64,000 bases of DNA from Isurus oxyrinchus (taxonomy: Eukaryota): NCBI GenBank assembly GCA_026770705.1, contig JANJGN010000002.1, positions 209,250,001-209,314,000 on the forward strand, given 5' to 3'. How positions within the stretch are numbered: the stretch's first letter is position 1; each line of letters starts with the position of its first letter. Shown piece by piece: positions 8,791-56,874 of this stretch. The notes below the pieces were generated by a model. That model made no database searches. It saw only the letters and a program-made list of their open reading frames with translations, and was not told the DNA's origin. The position numbers and the translations under genes are program-made.

Positions 8791-9333
8791 ATAGCAGTGA
8801 CCACCATCACAATAAAAACCATTCTAAAGCACCTCCATATCAGTAACACTGTCAGAGTAGGGGGACCTCATGAAGCAGATCTCACTAGGCCCACTGTAGC
8901 ATGGAATTTGACTTTTACGCCAGTTAATATATTATTGTAGTTTTTTTCCCCAATAAACAATGGGAGAATACGTGGCACAAAATATATTTTTCTCTGTCTT
9001 CCACACTTTCCTTCTATTTAATGGATTACACACTGGAAGTTAACACAGGGTTTACTTTTCTAAGTCTATAACAAGAAACCATGCTTGCCACCAATGCATT
9101 GGAAAATTTTGGGCATGTTGCCTGCAATTTTCTGTCCAAGGCTGGAAAATTGTGGGTAACATGTTTGCAATTTTCCAATATTTGCTGGGAGCAGGTAACA
9201 CCGTTGGCATAGACAAGTGCATTAATAGACATAAAAACAAAAAATTGCGGATGCTGGAAATCCAAAACAAAAACAGAAACAGAAATACCTGGAAAAACTC
9301 ATCAGGTCTGACAGCATCGGCGGAGGAGAGCAC

Positions 9334-9372
9334 AGTTGATGTTTCGAGTCCTCATGACCCTTCAACAGAACT
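9334..9372 (-). ncRNA. Minimal hammerhead ribozyme-like motif (pLTR)
   Basis: Reverse complement reads AGTT-CTGTTGA-A-GGGTC-ATGAG-GACTC-GAAAC-ATC-AACT. Confidence 0.65.
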
Positions 9373-9686
9373 AAGTAAAAATAGGAAAGGGGTGAAATAT
9401 AAGCTGGTTTGGCCGGGGGTGGGGGTAGTTTGTTGGGACAAGCAGCCAATAATAGATGAAGATAACCAAAAGCTGTCACAGACAAAAGAATAAAGAGGTG
9501 TTGAAGGTGGTGATATTATCTAAACCTTTAGATAATATCACCACCTTCAACACCTCTTTGTTCTTTTGTCTGTGACAGCTTTTGGTTATCTCCACCTATT
9601 ACTGGCTGCTTGTCCCAACAAACCACCCCCCCCCCACCCCACCACCTTAAACCAGCTTATATTTCACCCCTTTCCTATTTTTACTT

Positions 9687-9725
9687 AGTTCTGTTGAAGG
9701 GTCATGAGGACTCGAAACATCAACT
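9687..9725 (+). ncRNA. Minimal hammerhead ribozyme-like motif (pLTR)
   Basis: AGTT-CTGTTGA-A-GGGTC-ATGAG-GACTC-GAAAC-ATC-AACT. Confidence 0.65.
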
Positions 9726-9994
9726 GTGCTCTCCTCCGCCGATGCTGCCAGACCTGCTGAGTTTTTCCAGGTATTTCTGTTTCTGTTTTTGTTTTGCATT
9801 AATAGACACTTGGTGAGTTAACAAGGGTAAGATAAAAATTAGGCAGGGGGTCTATTCCTGATTATTTAATGGCTACAGTTTGAAAGTATATGTGTGGAGG
9901 TTGGAAGAGGACAGGACAGAACTTGTTTAAGGCTGAAACGCCTGAGGAGAGGGTAAAATAAATCAAGATGAGCAGAGATAAATATAACTAGATC

Positions 9995-17206: not shown

Positions 17207-17680
17207 TAGAAACAAAGAAAATAGGAGTGGGAGTAGGCCATTCGGCCCCTCAAGCCTGCTCTGCCATTCAATATGATCATAGCTGGTCCTCCATCTCAAC
17301 GCCATACACCCGCGCGCTCTCTCCATACCCTTCAAATCTTTTAGTGTCTAGAAATCTATTTCCTTCTTAAATATATTCAGTGAATTGGCCTCCACAGCCT
17401 TCTGTGGTATAGAATTCTACAGGTTCACAACCGAGTGAAGAAATTTCTCCTCATCTCAGCCCTAAATTTCTTATCCTGTATCCTGAGACCATAACGATAA
17501 AGGCCCTCCCCCAGACAGGGAAACTTCATCCCTGTAACCAGTCTGTCCATCCCTTTTTATATGTTTCTGTGAGATCCCTCTTATTCTTCTAAATTCCTGT
17601 GAATACAGGCCTAGTTGACCAAATCTCTCCTCATGACAATCCTGCCATCCCAGGAATCAGTCTGGTGAACCTTTGCTGTA
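17207..17680 (-). mobile_element. CR1 LINE 3' end
   Basis: Reverse-complement CR1 tail (GTAGGCCATTCGGCCCCTCAAGCCTGCTC) and ORF2 end (RFTRLIPG-like). Confidence 0.85.
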
Positions 17681-20387: not shown

Positions 20388-20541
20388 CTGGAAAAACTCA
20401 GCTTATATTTCACCTCTCTTCTATTTTCACTTAGTTCTGTTGAAGACTCATATGGACTCGAAACGTTAACTGTGTTCTTCTCCGCAGATGCTCCCAGACC
20501 TGCTGAGTTTTTCCAGGTATTTTTATTTTTATTTTTGTTTT
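20388..20541 (+). mobile_element. Short PLE pLTR insertion with 15-bp inverted stub and hammerhead-like motif (20433-20471)
   Basis: CTGGAAAAACTCAGC (inverted) is joined through CAGC to a direct pLTR end containing AGTTCTGTTGAAGACTCATATGGACTCGAAACGTTAACT. Confidence 0.85.
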
Positions 20542-21648
20542 GCAGTTTATTTTATGATCATCCAGTAGATGGCAGGATTCCACAAGGCAAGCCAGCTACC
20601 ATATTTCCCCCAACTTAAAGATAGAATACTGTACTTCAATTGAAGATTCAATATCTGAGGGGAGTTGGTGGTGATGGATTGGGGGGCAGGGGCAGGGTCA
20701 GGGGGAGGTGGCACATCTTGGGGGTACGCCCCAGTTACATTGCCCTGGAGCTCAGTAGTTACAGCCCAATGTTTTGAGTCCAGTATGACTCTTCTTCGGA
20801 ACACGGCACAAGGCGGCCTACTGTTGGCAATCATTCTGTATGATGTTACTCTGCCTATTTAATGGAGGTATTAACTTATTTAAAATGCACATGTTCATTT
20901 GCGAAGAGGAATGCTCAATATATTTGTTCCTCCATTATCAACAGTAATTTCTAACCTACATTGTTTTATTTGGCAATATTAAAAAGGTCTATTCTTCTCA
21001 TAATGGAAATAAAAGTCATAAGATGCTGCACTCACTAAGGAAACCAAAGCATAAAAAACATGGATTTAAGGAGCAGGTACAAGGAGCTACAGTTCTTTCA
21101 GCTGGTCTCCAGTCTGGGGTTTGCAATTTGTCAATCTCTTATTGATGGTTGTCACTCCTCACGTTTCCGTGATATAAATGAGTGGCTCGCTCCATAGTTA
21201 TTTTTGCTTCCAAAAATATACTTCATTCATAAAACTTCTAAAAATACATTACATGGTCGTTCAAAGTTGCATAAGGTGCAAAACCAAACCTGTTTCTTCC
21301 AATGTTGTAAGTTACTCAGGTTTACAAATACAGTTAATAATTACAATATTCATTACATGCAAAATATACAGCCTGAAAAGTTTTATCCTGTTTCCAGCCT
21401 CTCGGTACACCATGGCTGAAAAGCCTTAGATAGTAGCCTTTCCTCACTGCACCTCTGCAACAGCTGCCCCAAGCTTTACTGCATACCTCAGCATTTAGTC
21501 CTGGACCTTAGAATTTGCCAGTCTTGGGCACCTCTTTGCAACGTAAGACAAGCAAATTTCGGGCAGACCAAAGAGCGCCTTTTACCGAAATTATGGTCCT
21601 TCAGCCACAGGTGATGTTTATCTTGGTGTGCTTCCCTGGGAACTGCCA

Positions 21649-22767: not shown

Positions 22768-22974
22768 AGATAAAAACAAAAAAACTGCGGATGCTGGAAA
22801 TCCAAAACAAAAACAGAATTACCTGGAAAAACTCAGCAGGTCTGGCAGCATCGGCGGAGAAGAAAAGAGTTGACTTTCTGTTGAAGGGTCATGAGGACTC
22901 GAAACGTCAACTCTTTTCTTCTCCGCCGATGCTGCCAGACCTGCTGAGTTTTTCCAGGTAATTCTGTTTTTGTT
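22768..22974 (+). mobile_element. 207-bp non-coding fold-back PLE with one hammerhead-like core (22878-22912) in its loop
   Basis: Inverted arms. 15-bp TSD GTGAATGAAAAGCAG at 22753-22767 and 22975-22989. Confidence 0.92.
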
Positions 22975-33000: not shown

Positions 33001-33887
33001 ACTTTTCTTACCTGTAAAACATGGTATAGTAAAATCCTAACAGGTATCCCTGCAGTTACCGAGACAATTAACGCATGTAAAATCTTAAGCACATATTCCT
33101 ACGCACAACCACAGACTCCTAAGAAAATATCTGCTCTCTGTGTTAACAGTATGCTCGCACATACTCATATTAGCCCCCTTGATCTTTTTTACAATTGCTA
33201 GTACCCATTTTATCTACAAAATATGAAGAGATTTATTGCAAGCAACATAAACAACAGGGTGTCAGCTCACATTGGCAATGTGTACTGCCTTATGCAGTTG
33301 CATAGCCAGACTGCCGAGACGACAGTCAGCTCAAAATGAGTAAAAATCAATTAGCACTTCCTGAAAAGACTTGCCCTGTACAGCTGTGCATGTTGGTGTG
33401 TTAGTGGCTCCTCACTATTCTATCCTTCAGTTTCCACACAGACAGAAAGCAGCCACTTACACAGTGTAAAGGGACAGACTTTTGCTATATTTTATAAAAG
33501 TTGGCACCCAAAATTGCCAGGACAAAGAGCTTGTCTATGTAGTACAATATGTTGAACATTTTATTAATGTCACAAAGGAAAAGGGTAAATAATATAAAGT
33601 GTTTCAAAAAACAAATATAATTAGGAGAATAAAACAATAAAAATGGCATAAAATATTTAATATTTTAAACTTGGCATGTGGGACATGTATTTCATTGACA
33701 ATTCATTTTAAGCACCTGTTACTCCTGTATGTCTACCATAATAGATATTTTCAATGCTCACAGTGTCACAACATGTAACACACAATAGCTACTATCTTAG
33801 AGTGCCAGTATACCACCCTGCAGTTGCACTGACCACCAGATATGGTGAGCTGTGAAAGGAAAGTGGGAGTGGGGGATGCCTGTTGAA

Positions 33888-34165
33888 GAACATAAGAATG
33901 TGAGTAGGCCATTTAACACTTCAAGCCTGTTCTGCCATTCAATTAAATCATAGCTGACCTGTAACACCATTTACCTATATTTAACACATACATCTGGATA
34001 CCCTTTGATAAAAGCAAAATACTGCCGATGCTGGAAATCTCTCTCCACAGGTGCTGCTGGACCTGCTGAGTTTTTCCAGCATTTTCTGTTTTTATTATCC
34101 CTGGATACCCGTACCTGATTTTAAAAAGTCTATCGATCTCAGCCTTGAAAATTTCAATTGACATT
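33888..34165 (-). mobile_element. CR1 3' end interrupted by a mini PLE
   Basis: GTAGGCCATTTAACACTTCAAGCCTGTTCTGCCATTCAAT tail and IEIFKAEIDR ORF2 end. Confidence 0.7.
34004..34100 (+). mobile_element. About 100-bp mini PLE-tail insertion without ribozyme
   Basis: Inverted stub GATAAAAGCAAAATACTGCCGATGCTGGAAATCT plus direct tail. Flanking repeat CTGGATACCC at 33994-34003 and 34101-34110. Confidence 0.7.
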
Positions 34166-34437
34166 GCATCCAGTTTTGGAGGTCATCTTAATTCATCTAT
34201 TTAGGAAAAAAAACTTCCCCCCCATGGCTTAGCAATAATTAAATGATTCCAGGATTTTACTTCCAATATCCCATCTAAATATCTATTCCAAGTGTGAAGA
34301 ACTTCTGATCATTAGGTGCATGTTTCTCTTTAGATAAAAACAAAAAAACTGCGGATGCTGGAAATCCAAAACAAAAACAAAAACAGAATTACCTGGAAAA
34401 ACTCAGCAGGTCTGGCAGCATCGGCGGAGAAGAAAAG

Positions 34438-34476
34438 AGTTGACGTTTCGAGTCCTCATGACCCTTCGACAGAACT
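34438..34476 (-). ncRNA. Minimal hammerhead ribozyme-like motif
   Basis: Reverse complement reads AGTT-CTGTCGA-A-GGGTC-ATGAG-GACTC-GAAAC-GTC-AACT. Confidence 0.75.
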
Positions 34477-34780
34477 TGAGTTCGAGTCCAAGAAAGAGTT
34501 GAAATATAAGCTGGTTTAAGGTGTGTGTGTGGGGGGCGGAGAGAGAGAGAGAGAGAAGTGGAGTGGAGTGGGGGTGTGGTTGTAGGGACAAACAAGCAGT
34601 GATAGAAGCAGATCATCAAAAGATGTCAACAACAATAGAACAAAAGAACACATAGGTGTTAAAGTTAAAGTTGGTGATATTATCTAAACGAATGTGCTAA
34701 TTAAGAATGGATGGTAGGGCACTCAAGGTACAGCTCTAGTGGGGGAGGGGAGAGCATAAAAGATGTAAAAAAATTTTTAT

Positions 34781-37215
34781 ATGAACACATAGGAACACAC
34801 TCGACCTCTCCCTCCAGCAGCACCGCCGTACCCTTTTTCAAAGTTGCACATGCCCCCAGTTTCATTTTATCCTTCGGCTCATCCGACGCCTCAACAAGAA
34901 ACTTTTTCTCTTTCTCTCAACTGCTAAGGAACGCAAGCTCCAACAACTCATCGACACCAACACCCATCTAGGACCCTCCACCCCGGCCTGTCAACTCCGT
35001 CCCCACCCCATCTTCCAATCCCAACCCCAGCCGTGCATTCACTATACCCCCTGACCTTCCCCTCTCCGATGCTGAACGTTCAGTGCTCAGCAAAGGACTT
35101 AGTTTCATACCCTTACGCCCTCACCTCAATGAATTTCGGGCTCGGCATGATGCTGAACTCTTCTTCCGCCGTCTTCGTCTCCGGGCTCACTTCTTTGGGC
35201 AGGAGTCCTCTCCCAGTTCAACGGATCCTTTTACCCATCTCCAATATTCTCCCTCCACCTGGAACCCTCCCTCTGGATTCTTAACTTCTCTTGATCTTTT
35301 CATTGAGAACTACCGGCACGACATTAGTCATCTCAATTTCTCTGCTCCTCTCACCCAATCTAACTTGTCTCTCTCTGAACTTACTGCACTCCATTCTCTC
35401 AGGTCCAACCCTGACATTGTCATCAAACCCGCTGACAAGGGTGCTGTTGTTGTCTGGTGCACTGACCTCTACCTCGCGGAGGCTGAGCGTCAACTCGCAG
35501 ACACTTCCTCCTACCTCTCCCTGGACCATGACCCCACCACTGAACATCAAGCCATTGTTTCCAGGACTGTCACTGACCTCTGAGGATCTCTCTCTCATAG
35601 CTTCCAACCTGACAGTCGCTCAACCTCGGACGGCCCGCTTCTATCTCCTACCCAAAATCCACAAACAGAACTGCCCCGGTAGACCGATCGTCTCAGCTTG
35701 CTCCTGCCCCACAGAACTCATTTCTCGTTATCTTGACTCCCTTCTCTCTCCCCTTGTCCAGTCCCTTCCCACCTACATCCGTGATTCCTCTGACACCTTA
35801 CGTCACATCAACAATTTCCAGTTCCCTGGCCCCAACCGCTTCCTCTTCACCATGGACGTCCAATCCCTCTACACCTCCATCCCCCACCAGGATGGTCTGA
35901 GGGCCCTTAGCTTCTTCCTCGAACAGAGGCCCGAACAATCCCCATCCACCACTACTCTCCTCCGTCTGGCTGAACTTGTTCTCACGCTGAACAATTTCTC
36001 CTTCAACTCCTCTCACTTCCTCCAAATGAAAGGTGTGGCTATGGGTACCCGCATGGACCCCAGCTATGCCTGTCTCTTTATGGGGTATGTGGAACATTCC
36101 TTGTTCCAGTCCTACTCCGGCCCCCTTCTCAACTCTTTTTCCGGCACATCGATGATTACTTCGGTGCCGCTTCATGCTCTCGTCGGGACTTGGAAAAATT
36201 TATTAATTTTGCTTCCAATCTCCACCCCTCCATCATTTTCCCATGGTCCATCTCTGACACTTCCCTTCCCTTCCTTGACCTCTCTGTCTCAATCTCTGGT
36301 GATAGACTGTCCACCAATTTACATTACAAACCCACCGACTCCCACAGCTAGCTCGACTACAGCTCCTCACACCCCGCTTCCTGTAAGGACTCCATCCCAT
36401 TCTCTCAGTTCCTTCGCCTCCGTCCCATCTGTTCCGATGATGCTACCTTCAAAAACAGTTCCTCTGACATGTCCTCCTTCTTCCTTAACCGAGGTTTTCC
36501 ACCCACGGTCGTTGACAGGGCCCTCAACCGTGTCCGGCCCATCTCCCGCGCATCTGCCCTCACGCCTTCTCCTCCCTCCCAGAAACATGATAGGGTCCCC
36601 CTTGTCCTCACTTATCACCCCACCAGCCTCCGCATTCAAAGGATCATCCTCCGCCATTTCCGCCAACTCCAGCATGATGCCACCACCAAACACATCTTCC
36701 CTTCACCCCCCTTATCGGCATTCCGTAGGGATCGCTCCCTCCGGGACACCCTGGTCCACTCCTCCATCACCCCCTACTCCTCAACCCCCTCCTATGGCAC
36801 CACCCCATGCCCACGCAAAAGATGTAACACCTGCCCCTTCACTTCCTCTCTCCTCACCGTCCAAGGGCCCAAACACTCCTTTCAAGTGAAGCAGCATTTC
36901 ACTTGCATTTCCCCCAACTTAGTCTACTGCATTCGTTGCTCCCAATGTGGTCTCCTCTACATTGGAGAGACCAAACGTAAACTGGGCGACCGCTTTGCAG
37001 AACACCTGCGGTCTGTCCGCAAGAATGACCCAAACCTCCCTGTCGCTTGCCATTTCAACACTCCACCCTGCTTGCTTGCCCACATGTCTGTCCTTGGCTT
37101 ACTGCATTGTTCCAGTGAAGCCCAACGCAAACTGGAGGAACAACACCTCATCTTCCGACTAGGCACCTTACAGCCTTCCGGTCTGAATATTGAATTCAAT
37201 AACTTTAGGTCGTGA
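34781..37215 (+). pseudogene. PLE reverse transcriptase / GIY-YIG endonuclease ORF, disrupted
   Basis: LSKGLSF, IKPADKG, FYLLPKIHK..PGRPIVS, MDVQSLYT, GVAMGT, FRHIDD (YIDD variant), Cys linker PCPRKRCNTC, and LVYCIRCSQCGLLYIGETKR..RFAEH. Frameshifts near 35580 and 36125, and a stop near 36350. Confidence 0.95.
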
Positions 37216-37607
37216 GCTCCCTCCCCCATCCCCACCCCCTTTCTGTTTCCCCCTTTTTTCCCCCTTTTTTTTCCTATAAATTTTATAGATTTTTCTTTTC
37301 CCACCTATTTCCATTATTTTTAAATATTTTAAAATCTTTTATGCTCCCCCCACCCCCACTAGAGCTGTACCTTGAGTGCCCTACCATCCATTCTTAATTA
37401 GCACATTCGTTTAGATAATATCACCAACTTTAATTTTAACACCTATGTGTTCTATTGTACCATTGTCACTGACATCTTTTGATGATCTGCTTCTATCACT
37501 GCTTGTTTGTCTACACAAGCACCTCTGTCTCTCTCTCTCTCTCCGCCCCCCCCACACACACACCTTAAAGCAGCTTATATTTCAACTCTTTCTTGGACTC
37601 GAAATCA

Positions 37608-37646
37608 AGTTCTGTCGAAGGGTCATGAGGACTCGAAACGTCAACT
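37608..37646 (+). ncRNA. Minimal hammerhead ribozyme-like motif
   Basis: AGTT-CTGTCGA-A-GGGTC-ATGAG-GACTC-GAAAC-GTC-AACT in the 3' pLTR. Confidence 0.75.
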
Positions 37647-38959
37647 CTTTTCTTCTCCGCCGATGCTGCCAGACCTGCTGAGTTTTTCCAGGTAATTCTG
37701 TTTTTGCATGTTTCTCTTTCACCATTTTGAACGTGTGCCTTCTTGTTACACCACCAAAATTGTGTCCGTTATATTATTCTAGATTTAACTTTTACATGTC
37801 ACTTACTATCCTATACAGTTCTGAGGCTCTTTGCTAGTCATCTCTTTTCAAGACCCAAGGATTCTTCAGCATTCAATTTGTTAAGTTTATTGCTTCTCCA
37901 CTGATTAAATGGGACATATTAAATGGCAGGTCTCCAAACATTCCTAGATCTCCAAGATAAATTTGGATCTTCTTAAATGAAATGTGCCTTTCTTGTAAGA
38001 AATTCCTGGCAGCACTAGGATTGTTATATATTTGTGTGAATGCAAGTACCATGGCGTTTTTGATAATGGATCATGTCTGTGTAATATGCCCATACAAACA
38101 GCAGATGGTGTGTTTATACTTTACAGGGCAAATACGAAGTGAATGGTTTTGATTAATTCCCCAGATGGGTGACACACAAACCAAAGACAGACAGAGAAAT
38201 AAAAAAGCCATAGACCTCACACACAAACGTACTACTGCTAATGTAGGTAAACACAAACTAACCACTGTGATAACAGATACCTCATTTTCTGCATTTTTTA
38301 TCATTAAGGCTGCTTCTTTTTAAATCACATGACATCACTTCAAAGACTGCCCCACTGCTACTACTACATGTATATTTAGATTTCAAAATACACTCTCCAT
38401 TAATGGCTAGTGCCACATCAAAGTTTGATGCTTGAACAATAACTTGCACTAATGTAGGGCCTCTCCTGTTAAAAAAAATAACCACAAGGGAGAGAAGGGG
38501 TGTAAAGGGAAGACAGAAAATTGAAGGGAAGGTACAGCCAAAAATAGATTTTTAAAAGACTTTTGAAAGAAGATGAATGAGCAGTAAGGTCAGTAGTTTT
38601 GGAAGGCAATCCTAAAGAGCATCAGCATAGTAACTGGAAGATCAGCTTCTGATGTGGAAGTGAAGGAATTGGGGAGTTAGGGACCGGAGAGTATAGGCTG
38701 GTAGATATAATTGCAGAATTCAGTATGAGTGCAACAAAGCCATGGTGGATTCTGAAAACATGAATGAGGACTTTAACATCAATTGTTTGAGACATCCAAT
38801 AATGTGAGGTACCAGAGGGAACAGTACACTTGTGAAACAGTACTCTAAAGTATAACTTGGAGCTGCCATTCACTAAGATGAAACAGTGTTCTAGAAAATG
38901 GGAGTCAAACTTTAATATGTGAGCCACATACTGCCCTTGATCCCTAGAAATTAGATCAT

Positions 38960-39738: not shown

Positions 39739-39846
39739 CAAGTTCTGTCGAAGGGTCATGAGGACTCGAAACGTCAACTCTTTTCTTCTCCGCCGATGCT
39801 GCCAGACCTGCTGAGTTTTTCCATGTAATTCTGTTTTTGTTTTGTT
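39739..39846 (+). mobile_element. Solo PLE pLTR end beginning at the hammerhead-like motif (39741-39779)
   Basis: Nearly identical to the end of 37606-37704. Possible 6-bp TSD GAGAAT (39733-39738 and 39847-39852). Confidence 0.88.
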
Positions 39847-41340: not shown

Positions 41341-42514
41341 CCATCTCCCGCACGCCTTCTCTTCCCTCCCAGAAACATGATAGGGTCCCCCTTGTCCTCA
41401 CTTATCACCCCACCAGCCTCTGCATTCAAAGGATCATCCTCCGCCATTTCTGCCAACTCCAGCATGATGCCACTACCAAACACATTTTCCCTTCACCCCC
41501 CCCCCGGCGGCATTCTGTAGGGATCGCTCCCTCCGGGACACCCTGGTCCACTCCTCCATCACCCCCTACTCCTCAACTCTCACCTATGGCACCACCCCAT
41601 GCCCACGCAAAAGATGTAACGCCTGCCCCTTCACTTCCTCTCTCCTCACCAAGGGCCCAAACACTCCTTTCAAGTGAAGCAACATTTCACTTGCATTTCC
41701 CCCAACTTAGTCTACTGCATTCGTTGCTCCCAATGTGGTCTCCTCTACATTGGAGAGACCAAACGTAAACTGGGCGACCGCTTTGCAGAACACCTGCGGT
41801 CCATCCGCAAGATTGACCAAAACCTCCCTGTCGCTTGCCATTTCAACACTCCACCCTGCTCTCTTGCCCACATGTCTGTCCTTGGCTTGCTGCATTGTTC
41901 CAGTGAAGCCCAACGCAAACTGGAGGAACAACACCTCATCTTCCGACTAGGTACTTTACAGCCTTCCGGACTGAATATTGAATTCAACAACTTTAGGTCC
42001 TGAACTCCCTCCTCCATCCCCACTCCCTTTCTGTTTCTTCCCCCTTCCTTTTGTTTTTTTCCAATAAGTTATATAGATTTTTCTTTTTCCCACCTATTTC
42101 CATTATTCTTAAATATTTTTAAATCTTTTATGCTCCCCCCACCCCCACTAGAGCTATACCTTGAGTGCCCTACCATCCATTCTTAATTAGCACATTCGTT
42201 TAGATATATATCACCAACTTCAACACCTATGTGTTCTTTTGTTCTGTTGTCTGTGACATCTTTTGATGATCTGCTTCTATCACTGCTTGCTCATCCCTAC
42301 AACCACACCTCTCCCTCCACTTCTCTCCCCCTACCCAACCACCACCCCCCCCACCCCCACACACACACACCTTAAACCAGCTTATATTTCACCCCTTTCT
42401 TATTTCTACTTAGTTCTGTCGAAGGGTCATGAGGACTCGAAACGTCAACTCTTTTCTTCTCCGCCGATGCTGCCAGACCTGCTGAGTTTTTCCAGGTAAT
42501 TCTGTTTTTGTTTT
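41341..42514 (+). mobile_element. 5'-truncated PLE (GIY-YIG part plus pLTR with hammerhead-like motif 42412-42450), no inverted arm
   Basis: ORF 41674-42003 LVYCIRCSQCGLLYIGETKR. 11-bp TSD ACCCTATTCTC at 41330-41340 and 42515-42525. Confidence 0.94.
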
Positions 42515-44515: not shown

Positions 44516-44752
44516 AACAAAAAATAAAAACAAAAAAACTGCGGATGCTGGAAATCCAAAACAAAAACAGAATTACCTGGAAAAACTCAGCAGGTCTGGC
44601 AGCATGGGCGGAGAAGAAAAGAGTTGACGTTTCGAGTCATCATGACCCTTCGACAGAACTTGAGCACTCAAGTTCTGTCGAAGGGTCATGAGGACTCGAA
44701 ACGTCAACTCTTTTCTTCTCTGCCGATGCTGCCAGACCTGCTGAGTTTTTCC
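44516..44752 (+). mobile_element. 237-bp non-coding fold-back PLE with two opposed hammerhead-like motifs (44622-44660 minus, 44671-44709 plus)
   Basis: Palindrome centred on TTGAG-CA-CTCAA. 13-bp TSD AAATTAAATTAAA at 44503-44515 and 44753-44765. Confidence 0.93.
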
Positions 44753-48915: not shown

Positions 48916-49447
48916 GATAAAAGCAAAAAACTGCGGATGCTGGAAATCAACAACAAAAATACCTGGAAAAACTCAGCAGGTCTGACAACATCTGTGGAGA
49001 GGAACACAGTTAATGTTTCGAGTCCGTATGACTCTTCAACAGAACTAAGGAAAAAAGAAGAGGTGAAATATAAGCTGGTTTAAAGAGGGGGTGGGACAGG
49101 TAGAGCTGGATAGAGGGCCAGTGATAGGTGGAGATAGCCAAAAAATGTCATAGACAAAAGGACAAAGAGGTGTTGAAGGTGGTGATATTATCTAAGGAAT
49201 GTGATAATAGGCAACATTAAGGGTAGAAAGCAGGACGAGCAAGCCCTAGTGGGGGTGGGGTGGGGGGGAAGGGAATCGAAATAGGCTAAATGGTAGAGAT
49301 AAAACAATGGATGGAAATACATTTAAAAATAATGGAAGTAGGTGGGAAAAGAAAAATCTATATAAATTATTGGAAAAAAGGGCATCGGAAAGGGGGTGGG
49401 GATGGAGGAGAGAGTTCATAATCTAAAATTGTTGAACTCAAAATTCA
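48916..49447 (-). mobile_element. Isolated inverted PLE arm (complete pLTR plus last ORF codons) with hammerhead-like motif 49008-49046
   Basis: Reverse complement of EFNNFRL-stop plus pLTR with full tail. Stem II here is GAGTC/GACTC. No TSD found. Confidence 0.9.
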
Positions 49448-49449
49448 CT

Positions 49450-50825
49450 TTACAGCCTTTTGGACAGGAAGAAGTTTTTCCTCACATCACTTCTAGTCCT
49501 TTTGCTCATTAGTTTGAACCTGTGCCCTCTAGTTCTTAATGTACTCTTGAGCAGGAACAGCTTCTCACTATTTACCCTGTCCATTCCCCTCAAAATCTAA
49601 AATACCTCTATCAAGTTTCCCCTCAGTCTTCTTTTCTCCAAGGAAAACATTCCCAACCTCTCCAATCTGTCCTCATAACTACAGTTGTTCATCCCTGGAA
49701 TCATTCTTGTGAATCTGCTCCATACTTTCTCCAATGCCTTCACATCCTTCCTCAAGTATGGCGCCCAGAACTGGACGCAGTACTCCAGATGAGGCCTAAC
49801 CAGTGTCTTATACAAGTTTAATATGACTTCCTTACTCTTGTACTTAATTCCCCTTTGATAAATCCTAGGATACCAAATGCTTTATGAGCTGCTCTCTCAA
49901 CATGTCCTGCCACCTTCAGTGACTTATATACGTATACGCCGAGGCCCCTTTGTCCCTTAAGAGTTTCTCCCTTTATTTCATACTGTCTCTCCACATTCTT
50001 CCTGCCAAAATGAATCACCACACACTCCTCTGCATTAAACTTCATCTCCCACTTGTCTGCCCAATCCACCAACATGTATGAACTTTTGAAGTTCAAGACT
50101 ACGCTCATCACTGTTGACAACGTTTCCAATCTTTGTATCGTCTGCAAATTTTGAAATCATGCCCTGCACACCACAGCCTAGGTCATTAATATATATCAGG
50201 AAGAGCAAGGGTCCCAACACTGACCCCTGGGAAATTCCACTACAAGCCTTCTTCCAATTTGAAAAACAATCATTTATCACTACTCTCTGTTTCCTGTCAC
50301 TCAGCCAATTTCTTATCCAAGTGTCTACTTTCCCTTTTATTTCATGAGCTAGGATTTTCCCCACAAGTCTGTTGTGTGGGCTTTTTGAAAATCCATATAC
50401 ACCACATCAACAATATTGCCCTTATCAACTTTCTCTGTTACCTCCTCAAAATAACTCCAGCAAGCTAATTAAACATGATTGGCCATTGATGAATCCATGC
50501 TGGCTTTTCTTAATTATCCTGCGCTTGTCTAAGTGACTATTGATTTTGCCCCAAACAATAGTTTCCATAAGTTTCCCTACCACTGAAATGAAATTGATTG
50601 GTCTGTAGTTGCCAACTTTATCCTTGCACCCCTTTTTGGATAAGGGTGTAACATTCACAATTCTTCAGTCCTCTGGCACCTCTCCTGTGTCTAAGGAAGA
50701 CTAGAAGATTATCAATAGCGCCTCTGAAATTTCCATTCTCACCTCCTTCAGTACCTTTGGATGCGTTTCATCCTGTCCTGGTACCTTATCTATTTTAAGT
50801 AAAGATAGCCTTTCTCAAACCTCCC
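49450..50825 (-). mobile_element. CR1 LINE RT fragment
   Basis: GNYRPI, QGSVLGPLLFLIYINDL, SKFADDTK, YKTLVRPHLEYCVQFWAPY. Confidence 0.93.
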
Positions 50826-51140: not shown

Positions 51141-52355
51141 CATACAAACAGGGAGCAGGGGTAGGCCATTTGGATCCTCAAGCCTTCTCTGCCATTCAAT
51201 AAGATCATAGCTGATCTGACAGTAACCGCAAACCTGCATCCCCGATAATCTATCACCCCCTTGCTTACCAAGAATCTATCCATCACTGCGTTAAAAATAT
51301 TCAAAGACTCTGCTTCTACCACCTTTTCAGGAAAAGTTCCAAAGGCTCACGACCCTCTGAGAGAAACAAGTCGCCTCATCTCTGTTTTAAATAGGTGACT
51401 CTTCTTATTTTTAGACAGTGACCCCTCATTCTAGACTCTCCCACAAGAGGAAACATCCTTTCCACATCCACCCTGCCAAGACCCCCTCAGGATCTTATAT
51501 GCGTCAATCAAGTCGCCTCTTACTCTTCTAAACTCCAGTGGATACAAGCCTAACCTGTCCAGCCTTTCCTCATATGACAACCAGCCCATTCCTGGTATCA
51601 GTCTGGTAAACATTCTTTGAACTGCTTCCAATGCACTCACATCCTTCCCCAAATAAGATGACCAACACTGGACTCAACCCTCCAGTTGTGGTCTCACTGA
51701 AGCATAACCTCCCTACTTTTGTATTCAGCTGCCCTCGCAATAACATTCTATTAGCTCTCCCAATTGCTTGCTGTACCTGCATACCAACCCCCTGCGATTC
51801 ACACACTAAGACACTCAGATCCCTCTGTACCTCAGTTCTGCAATCTCTCACCATTTAGATAATATGCTTCTGTTTTATTCTTCTTGCCAAAATGGACAAT
51901 TTCACATTTTCCTACATTATGCTCCAATTGCCGGATCTTTGCCCACTTACTTAATCTATCCATATCTTTTTGTAGCTTCCTTATGTCCTCTTCACAACTT
52001 ACTTTCCTACTTATCTTTGTGTCATCAGCAAATTTGGCAACCATCCTATCCATCCCTTCATCCAATTCATATATATAAATTGTAAACAGTTGAGGTCCCA
52101 GCACTGATCCCTGTGGCACACCACTCGTTACACCTTGCCAACCTGAAAAAGGCTCATTTATTCCTACTCTCTGCTTCCTGTTGGTCAGCCAATCTTCTAC
52201 CTATGCCAATATGTTACCCCTTATGCCATGAGCTTTTATTTTATGCAATAACCTCTGATGTGGCACTTTATTAAGTGCCTTCTCTATATCTAAGTACAGT
52301 ACATCCACCGGTTCCCCTTTATCCACAGGGGAACTTCCCAAAGAACTCCAATAAC
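51141..52355 (-). mobile_element. CR1 LINE RT fragment with 3' UTR
   Basis: PQGSVLGPQLFTIYIYELDEG, AKFADDTK, RLIPGMGWLSYEERLDRLGLY. Confidence 0.93.
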
Positions 52356-54559: not shown

Positions 54560-56874
54560 CAGTCTGCTGTTTCGCAGGTGTCTCTGCGAAAGCAAGGGGA
54601 GATAATTAGTGCATGGCAGTGGTCTGTGAAACAGGACACATCAGTCATAGCATGGTTGTATGACAGATGTTGCACTTCTGGATCCTCGCTTGGTACAGCA
54701 CCGCTGACCTCACCGTCAGCACAGGAGCAGTCCAGATCCTCGCTGGACAGCTGGATGGCTCTGTTTTCAAAGTCCATGAGGACCTTCATTTCAGTCATTC
54801 CTCCACCAGTCTGCGACCTCTCCCTGTTGTTGTGTGCCAGCTTGTCCTGCATGAATAGTGATGGAGAAAGAGTAAACAGGATGCCTGTCTGGCCAGATGA
54901 TAAGTATAAAAGCAAAAAACTGCAGATGCTGGAAATCCAAAACAAAAACAAAAATACCTGGAAAAACTCAGCAGGTCTGGCAGCATCTGCGGAGAGGAGC
55001 ACAGTTAACGTTTCGAGTCCAAATGACCCTTCAACAGAACTAAGTAAAAATAGAAGAGAGATGAAATATATAGATGAAATATCAGCTCCTCACACCCCGC
55101 TTCCTGTAAGGACTCCATCCCATTCTCTCAGTTCCTTCGCCTCTGTCGCATCTGTTCTGATGATGCCACTTTCAAAAACAGTTCCTCTGACATGTCCTCC
55201 TTCTTCCTTAACTGAGGTTTTCCACACACGGTCGTTGACAGGGCCCTCAACCGTGTCTGGCCCATCTCCCAAGCATCCGCCCTCACACCACCTTCTCCCT
55301 CCCAGAAACATGATAGGGTCCTCCTTGTCCTCACATATCACCCCACCAGCCTCCACATTCAAAGGATCATCCTCTGCCATTTCCACCAACTCCAGCATGA
55401 TGCCACCACCAAACATATCTTCCCTTCACCACCTCCACCCCCACCCCCCCTCCCCCCCGGCAGCATTCCGCAGGGATCGTTCCCTCCAAGACACCCTGGT
55501 CCACTCCTCCATCACCCCCTATACCTCAACCCCCTCCCATGGCACCTTCCCATGCAACTGCAGAAGGTGCAACACCTGCCCCTTTACTTCTCCTCTCCTC
55601 ACCGTCCAAGGGCCCAAACACTCCATTCAAGTGAAGCAGCATTTCACTTGCACTTCCCTCAATTTAGTCTACTGCATTCATTGCTCCCAATGCGGTTTCC
55701 TCTACATTGGAGAGACCAAACGCAGATTGGGTGACCGCTTTGCAGAACACCTTCGGTCTGTCCGCAAGCATTACGCAGACCTCCCTGTCACTTGTCATTT
55801 CAACACTCCACCCTGCTCTCATGCCCACATGTCCGTCCTTGGCTTGCTGCATTGTTCCAGTGAAGCTCAATACAAACTGGAGGAACAGCACCTCATCTTC
55901 CGACTAGGCACTTTACAGCCTTCCAGACTGAATATTGAGTTCAACAATTTTAGATCATGAACTCTCTCCTCCGTCCCCACCCCCTTTCCAATTCCCCCCC
56001 CCACCTTTTTTTTCCAATAATTTATATAGATTTTTCTTTTCTCACCTATTTCCATTATTTTTAAATGTATTTCCATCCATTGTTTTATCTCTACCTTTTA
56101 GCCTTTTTTGATTCCTTCACCCCACCCCCACCAGGGCTATCTGTAACTTGCCTGTCCTGCTTTCTACCCTTATTTAACACATTCCTTAGATAATATCACC
56201 ACCTTCAACACCTCTTTGTCCTTTTGTCTGTGACATCTTTTGGTTATCTCCACCTATTACTGGCCCTCTATCCAGCTCTACTTGTACCACCCCCCTTAAA
56301 TCAGCTTATATTTCACCTCTCTTCTATTTTTACTTAGTTCTGTTGAAGGGTCATTCGGACTCGAAACGTTAATTGTGCTCCTCTCCGCAGATGCTGCCAG
56401 ACCTGCTGGGTTTTTCCAGATGTTAAGTATGCCTGGCAAATGTGGGTGATGAGTGGTCCCATAGACAGGATGAGGACAATGAAGGTGTGTGTGAGAGTGA
56501 ATGGTGATGTCCCTTGAACTGGCAATGAATGAGGGCCCTGTGGATGTGCAACGGGTTTGTGCTTGTGTGAGTTGAGAGTGATAAGAAGAGTGACTTAGCC
56601 AGGCAAAATGAAGGAAATCATTCATCCTCTTGTGGCACTGCGTGGCTGTCCTCTTTTGCAGGGCATTGGCGCTAACCACCACTGCCACTACCTCCCAAGC
56701 CGGAATAGTGATGTTGCTGCCCATCCTGCAGCCAGAGCGGGGGTGGGGGATATCATGGCGGGCCTCCTCGGCGTCCAAAAGACACTTGAGAGGCACATCA
56801 TTGAACACAGAGGCTGCAGTCTTTTTGCCTTTCAGGGCCTTGTTTTCCATGCAGCAGTCCTGGGCTGGAGGCAC
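54560..56874 (-). pseudogene. Harbinger Myb/SANT-like DNA-binding protein, two exon remnants (about 56597-56874, and 54846 downward)
   Basis: LLDAEEARHDI...AWEVVAVVVSANALQKRTATQCHKRMND, then acceptor TTCATGCAG|DKLAHNNRERSQTGGG. The PLE sits in the intron. Confidence 0.75.
54908..56415 (+). mobile_element. 5'-truncated PLE with inverted arm (hammerhead-like motifs 55003-55041 minus, 56336-56374 plus)
   Basis: GIY-YIG end LVYCIHCSQCGFLYIGETKR. 15-bp TSD CCAGATG(A/T)TAAGTAT at 54893-54907 and 56416-56430. Confidence 0.94.

Follow-up and report, generated by a model that had tools for sequence, protein, structure and literature searches.

Hammerhead motifs and their host element

At positions 37608..37646 (+) of the window, the 64-kb stretch of Isurus oxyrinchus DNA analysed here, lies, within a pseudo-LTR belonging to a Neptune-type Penelope-like element, a 39-nt motif that, judged from its letters, is a minimal type I hammerhead with the U6C7 core of the youngest stage. 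Stem I of this copy pairs 37608-37611 with 37643-37646 (+), the core starts with C3 at 37612, with U6 at 37615 and an additional A at 37619 (+), stem II pairs 37620-37624 with 37630-37634 (+), and GAAA at 37635-37638 is followed by a cut predicted after 37642 (+). The motif has stems I and II, an extra base after A9, the G10.1-C11.1 pair, GAAA, a palindromic stem III and an NUH site, and the canonical core CUGANGA with A6 is absent from the window and found in older subfamilies. Upstream (37570..37607, +) is pseudo-LTR sequence formed of a 14-nt anchor and then a tract, with insertion 5' ends clustering at its 3' edge, and downstream (37647..37706, +) are a linker and a conserved tail, in which 0/30 positions at 37662-37691 have changed since the first U6 stage. 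The same insertion contains a broken, 5'-truncated reverse transcriptase (RT) and GIY-YIG frame (34788..37215, +), which is 95% identical to an intact unit and includes a C-x4-C-x2-C linker, and an inverted pseudo-LTR (34327..34776, -) with its own U6C7 motif at 34438-34476.

Using the 39-mer at 37608 as query, we scanned both strands of the window ungapped and detected 13 matches at 0-6 mismatches, the next match, at 15 mismatches, being unrelated; a strict pattern search found 12 of the 13. These are the 13 copies listed in the initial annotation, with the one placed at 22878 present but spanning 22874-22912, and its claim that every copy has U at position 6 was also confirmed (13/13). The motifs derive from ~9 insertions, four of which are inverted pairs. 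U6U7 copies at 9334..9372 (-) and 9687..9725 (+) form the two arms of an inverted pair (9226-9798), and those at 55003..55041 (-) and 56336..56374 (+), the second with an AUUCG loop, are the inverted arm and the 3' end of one element (54908-56419). Likewise, U6C7 copies at 44622..44660 (-) and 44671..44709 (+) are the arms of a tight head-to-head pair. Two further U6C7 copies are found in a 107-nt solo insertion that begins a few bases 5' of stem I (39741..39779, +) and at the 3' end of a truncated element at 41347-42514 (42412..42450, +). The remaining copies are an old U6U7 motif in a solo fragment at 20399-20545 (20433..20471, +), with a C.C mismatch in stem II, one at an inversion junction with the stem I 5' strand partly missing (22874..22912, +), and one of the oldest U6 stage, with an A-U pair in stem II and an AUACG loop (49008..49046, -).

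Stem III is ACGU in 10/13 window copies and ACAU in 3/13, the latter a CpG transition of the former. The stem II loop had been described as varying freely, which does not hold, as AUGAG is present in 8/13 copies and AUAUG and AUUUG are CpG decay products of AUACG and AUUCG, respectively. Among the eight distinct window sequences 95.8% of cells across the stems are paired, with no pair changed on both sides. An Rfam scan of the window gave no hammerhead match at E values up to 5, its matches being limited to hairpins of microRNA families at the inverted pairs, and the hammerhead assignment therefore draws on comparison with the A6 relatives and with the consensus published for minimal hammerheads, which the anatomy matches except at position 6; on these grounds the earlier proposal that the motif is a Penelope-like element's minimal type I hammerhead stands. 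Elsewhere in the window we observed a tail-only fragment of an older relative of the element, lacking the hammerhead (34042-34101), fragments of another RT-bearing retrotransposon at 50035-50406 and 51832-52200 (-; RVT_1 E=1.7e-11 and 8.5e-9), and other dispersed repeats at 17213-17288, 33884-33959 and 51141-51216.

The motif sits ~400 nt 3' of the GIY-YIG frame and just 5' of the end of each insertion. Full 3.35-kb units occur in tandem at one locus (L061), and this and a second locus (L062), both among 20 loci selected for closely spaced motif matches, each contain one unbroken 926-codon frame with a U6C7 motif on either side. The L062 frame, of 918 codons when counted from the first Met, matches RVT_1 (E=3.4e-6) and GIY-YIG (E=0.0023), each below the Pfam cut-off, and has DKG and YIGET motifs and a C-x4-C-x2-C linker at residue 792. 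A CX2-5CxxC linker between RT and endonuclease is described for Neptune and also for Nematis (PMC8557442), and it is this linker motif, rather than a tree with named Neptune elements, that gives the name Neptune-type. Other hallmarks of endonuclease-bearing Penelope-like elements are also present, namely a single frame with RT plus a GIY-YIG endonuclease at its C terminus, partial tandems with pseudo-LTRs, inverted 5'-truncated copies, of which inverted arms are also found in the window, and a 3' tail. We rejected a non-LTR retrozyme, described as short non-coding tandem units with a hammerhead in each (bioRxiv 10.64898/2026.07.22.740005), as the motifs here stand at the ends of elements with coding capacity or of insertions that are truncated. 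Measured from C3, the long frame's first ATG is 169 nt downstream, and in the youngest type two upstream frames of 18 and 10 codons fall between the motif and this ATG (37625-37681; L062:2584-2770). The first upstream ATG originated in loop II at a time when U6 had already abolished the AUG that A6-U7-G8 formed in the old core.

Position 6 across the genome

Genome-wide, U6 followed by a pyrimidine at position 7 gave 105,319 exact matches, compared with 0 for a reversed-pattern control. U6C7 accounts for 74,745 of these and the oldest U6 type for 6,587. In the same motif frame there were 5,362 exact matches to A6(U/C)7, with 8,505 non-U6 matches in total with a pyrimidine at 7, and a further 7,549 with a purine at 7, which by hand count comprised ~65 A6A7 and 28 U6G7 among the 100 matches listed. 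An ancient short-loop family (75 matches, counted by hand) has A6 in 58 and U6 in 6, and one A6A7 subfamily (L196, L199, L200 and L215; 1497-1535) shows a C.A mismatch in stem I that is absent from later subfamilies. When copies were picked by anchors outside the motif, U6 was present in 118/123, and the sole recurrent changes at invariant core positions in these copies were CpG transitions and U4-to-G in three. Exact counts are biased toward young copies: after removing 136 of 385 copies that had been picked by core pattern, the exact-match rates were 57/85 for U6C7, 28/70 for U6U7, 4/15 for A6U7 and 1/13 for A6A7. The low A6 rates imply tens of thousands of A6 copies, so that these families too were once abundant and the expansion is not creditable to U6.

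We built a tree from the endonuclease region only, excluding the motif. Of 274 motif copies, 68 covered 380 nt or more of this region, and dropping one row whose upstream sequence came from a neighbouring young copy left 67. The tree forms a ladder from A6A7 through A6U7, U6U7 with an A-U pair and U6U7 with G.U to U6C7, and the 54 rows of the U6 line split from 13 old A6 rows with support of 98/89, although the bootstrap is not fully settled. A lone A6 row inside the U6 clade is a back-change in a young background, and grouping it with the old A6 rows was rejected (p-AU 1e-13). Divergence of the frame from the group majority was 1.0% in the youngest copies (n=41), 4.7% in the oldest U6 group (n=8), 5.3% in A6U7 (n=12) and 9% in A6A7. 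From the tree and the order of divergence, U6 therefore arose once from A6, in the master lineage, and stayed in the active line. The youngest copies, including those with intact 926-codon frames, carry U6C7 and not A6, and the initial view of a family-level natural variant rather than decay holds in so far as U6 was inherited from a master lineage; the variant is not fixed, with older subfamilies having A6. A C6 master stage was rejected, since the C6 rows require three changes on the tree and C6 is thus mostly sporadic, or at most a small branch. In contig runs from two organisms U6 was dominant in both, and the very youngest upstream type was common only in organism A, in each case among the matches listed.

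Constraint, insertion ends and cleavage after the change

Our preferred reading, with a probability of about 0.5, is that the motif is a weakened ribozyme still held in shape, in a lineage that changed A6 to U once. The master lineage made this change, which likely reduces self-cleavage strongly, and continued to transpose. Insertions end in the tail just 3' of the motif, where, by analogy, RT likely starts, so that cleavage at the 3' motif copy would detach the tail used for priming from the coding part, cleavage at the 5' copy would take off the likely capped start, and RNA left uncut would serve as template. If cutting were rare, perhaps confined to dimers or to the presence of the element's protein, it would then be tolerated or favoured: if transcripts start at stem I, cutting would remove the cap, and weak cleavage would cost little and may help.

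A close rival to this, which we consider possible but less probable, is that U6 killed the ribozyme and the motif persists through lack of time or through another role of the same bases, which might act as internal promoter with the start of transcription, serve as splice acceptor or bind protein. The pattern of change since the first U6 stage bears on both. Only 1/31 hammerhead-constrained positions changed up to the youngest stage, an A-U to G.U change that preserves pairing, compared with 4/7 of the free positions, N7, loop II and N17 (Fisher p=0.002), so that the changes fell where the chemistry leaves the base free, which argues against a dead motif. Likewise, N7 is U, C or G in amplified subfamilies, with the C3-G8 pair, G12 and the NUH site kept. 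Along the same line the frame is under purifying selection, with 9/326 second codon positions and 20/163 four-fold sites changed. Measured against this synonymous rate, ~4 changes would be expected in 31 sites where one was observed (P of at most one=0.09; Fisher 0.21), a difference that is not significant and that a dead ribozyme could also give, and the probability of no structure-breaking change in 31 is ~0.017, a value that assumes any change would be structure-breaking. Change at the free positions outpaced that at synonymous sites (4/7 vs 13/115, p=0.007), and the contrast of 4/7 with 1/31 may thus partly reflect fast free sites. In addition the tail (0/30) and the upstream anchor (0/14) match the core in their constancy, and constraint in this region may thus have a source other than the ribozyme.

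No compensatory pair has appeared since U6 among the eight distinct window sequences. Across families there is one, with G-C in 15, A-U in 10 and G.U in 10 of 35 rows, these rows having been picked by patterns that fix stem II, and it belongs to the A6 period; stem covariation, proposed earlier as a check, is thus absent within the U6 clade and the lone example predates it. The case for hammerhead constraint after U6 is best described as suggestive, and selection probably still acts on the remainder of the fold. The non-coding part of the pseudo-LTR (37216-37607) apparently changed faster along the master line than synonymous sites (40/131 vs 13/115) in gappy alignments, for which reason we set this 3' UTR aside as a neutral control; such fast change would fit a promoter under host pressure.

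Insertion 5' ends provide a further line of evidence. They fell between C3-10 and C3-2 in 23/136 U6C7 copies, compared with 5 in the following 30 nt, where 20 of the 23 are inverted-pair arms and some loci had been chosen for close pairs. An unselected listing, counted by hand, contained 11 head-to-head pairs at 30-42 nt spacing, equal to 22 among the 100 matches listed, and the A6 families show the same clustering at the first bases of stem I. Sites where 5' ends or inversion centres pile up include 37602-37611 and 44660-44671 in the window and loci L017, L078, L080 and L152. As the simplest explanation of this pile-up, transcription likely begins with the opening bases of stem I, and old copies resemble an initiator element at its 5' edge. 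A splice acceptor at the stem I edge would be an alternative to a transcription start, and in old subfamilies (37570-37609; L031, L164) the anchor, pyrimidine tract and AG resemble a branch point and 3' splice acceptor. Both roles would serve a dead ribozyme, as would the shared pile-up in U6 and A6 families, and they have parallels in the internal promoter reported for Penelope (PMC2377424) and the intron in D. virilis reported to end at helix I (PMC4209133). The pyrimidine tract upstream of the core was lost in the youngest stages, and the tract at 37584-37607 was replaced stepwise over the subfamilies by a look-alike of the hammerhead 3' half and linker. This look-alike could pair with the stem II 5' strand; read as a permuted type II hammerhead, it was rejected on inspection, as stems I and III lack room. 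An extra G at insertion 5' ends, considered as a cap signature, was seen by eye at ~5/15 non-inverted junctions and was unconvincing. Contig runs showed neither an end pile-up nor a GT..AG joint; contigs show no RNA ends.

Published work on position 6 suggests that U6 likely weakens or abolishes self-cutting of the RNA. An A6C hammerhead cleaves at <0.1 per min (PMC3088659), its activity is strongly cut at 0.3 mM Mg2+ and rescued by Mn2+ and by 10 mM Mg2+ (PMC7151607), and in a type III hammerhead the CUGA-turn mutants reported all had low activity except a C-G swap (PMC9901934); a published measurement of A6U was not found in our literature search. In folding predictions for the isolated motif, stem II had a probability of 0.79-1.00 at most stages and 0.61 for A6A7. 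In flanking context its probability was 0.4-0.8 before the G.U change and 0.00-0.06 once this had occurred, and stem I was near zero at every stage, A6 included. The isolated U6 and A6 versions alike collapsed into alternative predicted pairings, and folding therefore does not separate U6 from A6. A new rod pairing of G5-A9 with U16.1-C1.3 through U6 had a probability of 0.00 at every stage and was discarded. Where the initial annotation had left the choice between an active variant and an attenuated RNA element, the published A6 data and the folding favour the attenuated one. As the element made >100,000 copies after the change, full-strength self-cutting is likely unnecessary for its spread.

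These data also bear on a reading that we regard as rather doubtful, in which U6 is a working core variant that cleaves about as well as its A6 ancestor, with the element's protein, as a dimer or in other cations, the change being neutral. Every other defining base has been kept since U6, A6C is rescued by Mn2+ and 10 mM Mg2+, and for an anole Penelope-like hammerhead cutting is reported to need protein (PMC11167929). There is also an excess of junctions at the predicted cut: by hand count 24 among 100 of 947 matches listed, or ~230 copies, had a 5' junction there, compared with 10 among 100 of 587 listed (~59 copies) one base upstream and 14 among 100 of 741 listed (~104 copies) one base downstream. 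However, this 2-4x excess over neighbouring bases involves ~0.3% of copies and can stem from microhomology between AA and stem I, A6 changes are deleterious in Mg2+ in the three studies above, and stem II weakened later. Only 1 junction within 11 nt of the cut was seen among the 100 matches listed for a mostly-A6 older subfamily, and cut RNA is not a main template in the U6 copies or in this subfamily. That U6 is copy-by-copy decay, or the motif not a hammerhead, scarcely deserves credence despite the lack of an Rfam hammerhead match and the 6/75 U6 copies in the ancient family (hand count), being largely refuted by the U6 and A6 counts and the tree, with one derived U6 clade and 105,319 exact matches, by A6 relatives that equal the published consensus letter for letter and by the one compensatory pair across families.

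Related systems and meaning

In 2014 Cervera and De la Pena (PMC4209133) described minimal type I hammerheads from Penelope-like elements of metazoans, and the motif shares with these hammerheads its position in the pseudo-LTR, the 4-bp stem I and NUH site, the extra base between A9 and G10.1, the G10.1-C11.1 pair and palindromic 15.2-16.2, a U-rich 5' flank and opposite-strand pairs near each other. Their representatives, as presented there, have A6 in 56/56, partly by construction as the descriptor was built on the conserved core, include no cartilaginous fish and show U3-A8 as the reported core variant, whereas here U6 marks the dominant and youngest lineage. The phage Bcep176 A6C hammerhead is likewise a natural position-6 change with the remaining core intact (PMC3088659, PMC7151607). 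However, it has C and not U, is a single phage sequence, and is self-cleaving in assay, with low activity in Mg2+ and rescue by Mn2+, whereas the motif here is minimal, is present in >100,000 copies alongside A6 ancestors and is known from sequence alone.

Poseidon of Anolis carolinensis (PMC11167929) also has a hammerhead upstream of an insertion-end tail and encodes RT and GIY-YIG. It belongs to another clade, its frame begins within the ribozyme and its cleavage has been demonstrated with protein, unlike the present element, in which the first ATG lies well past C3 and the linker points to Neptune. In the anole element, as reported, RT starts 3' of the hammerhead and uncut RNA is the main substrate, and cleavage requires the element's protein and is dispensable for insertion in vitro (PMC11167929); by analogy 37647..37706 likely contains the RT start region. 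Naiad and Chlamys reach high copy numbers without a canonical hammerhead, as here, and the very high numbers of hammerhead-free Naiad fit a motif that no longer cuts, as do the small C6 groups inside the U6 clade. However, Naiad and Chlamys are described without the motif or its stems and with an N-terminal endonuclease (PMC8557442), whereas here the whole fold is kept and one core change can be ordered in time. For viral hammerheads, a role in translation start is reported to have needed the intact catalytic base (PMC13725137).

Hammerheads in Penelope pseudo-LTRs and rare natural core variants are already known. Our literature search found no U6 hammerhead and no shark Penelope hammerhead, although Lunse et al. 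2017 may report core variants, and what appears to be new is a position-6 change fixed in a lineage that is dominant and was active recently, in a genome that also retains its A6 ancestors. Why Penelope-like elements retain a hammerhead is a standing question, given that cleavage is weak in vitro. The genome records, as a natural time series, how the canonical core gave way to another while transposition continued to near-identical copies, and a canonical core is thus not required for spread in vivo. Most copies in this genome would escape searches restricted to CUGANGA, and the natural A6 and U6 sequences, one core letter apart, suit direct assay. A bolder extension, which we think unlikely, is that cleavage by the U6 core persists in the ribonucleoprotein of the element itself and that the A-to-U change was a selected dial on self-cutting of the template. 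If U6 does cleave in the ribonucleoprotein, this would be a hammerhead that functions although its CUGA turn lacks A6, present in >100,000 copies and with single-letter A6 ancestors alongside.
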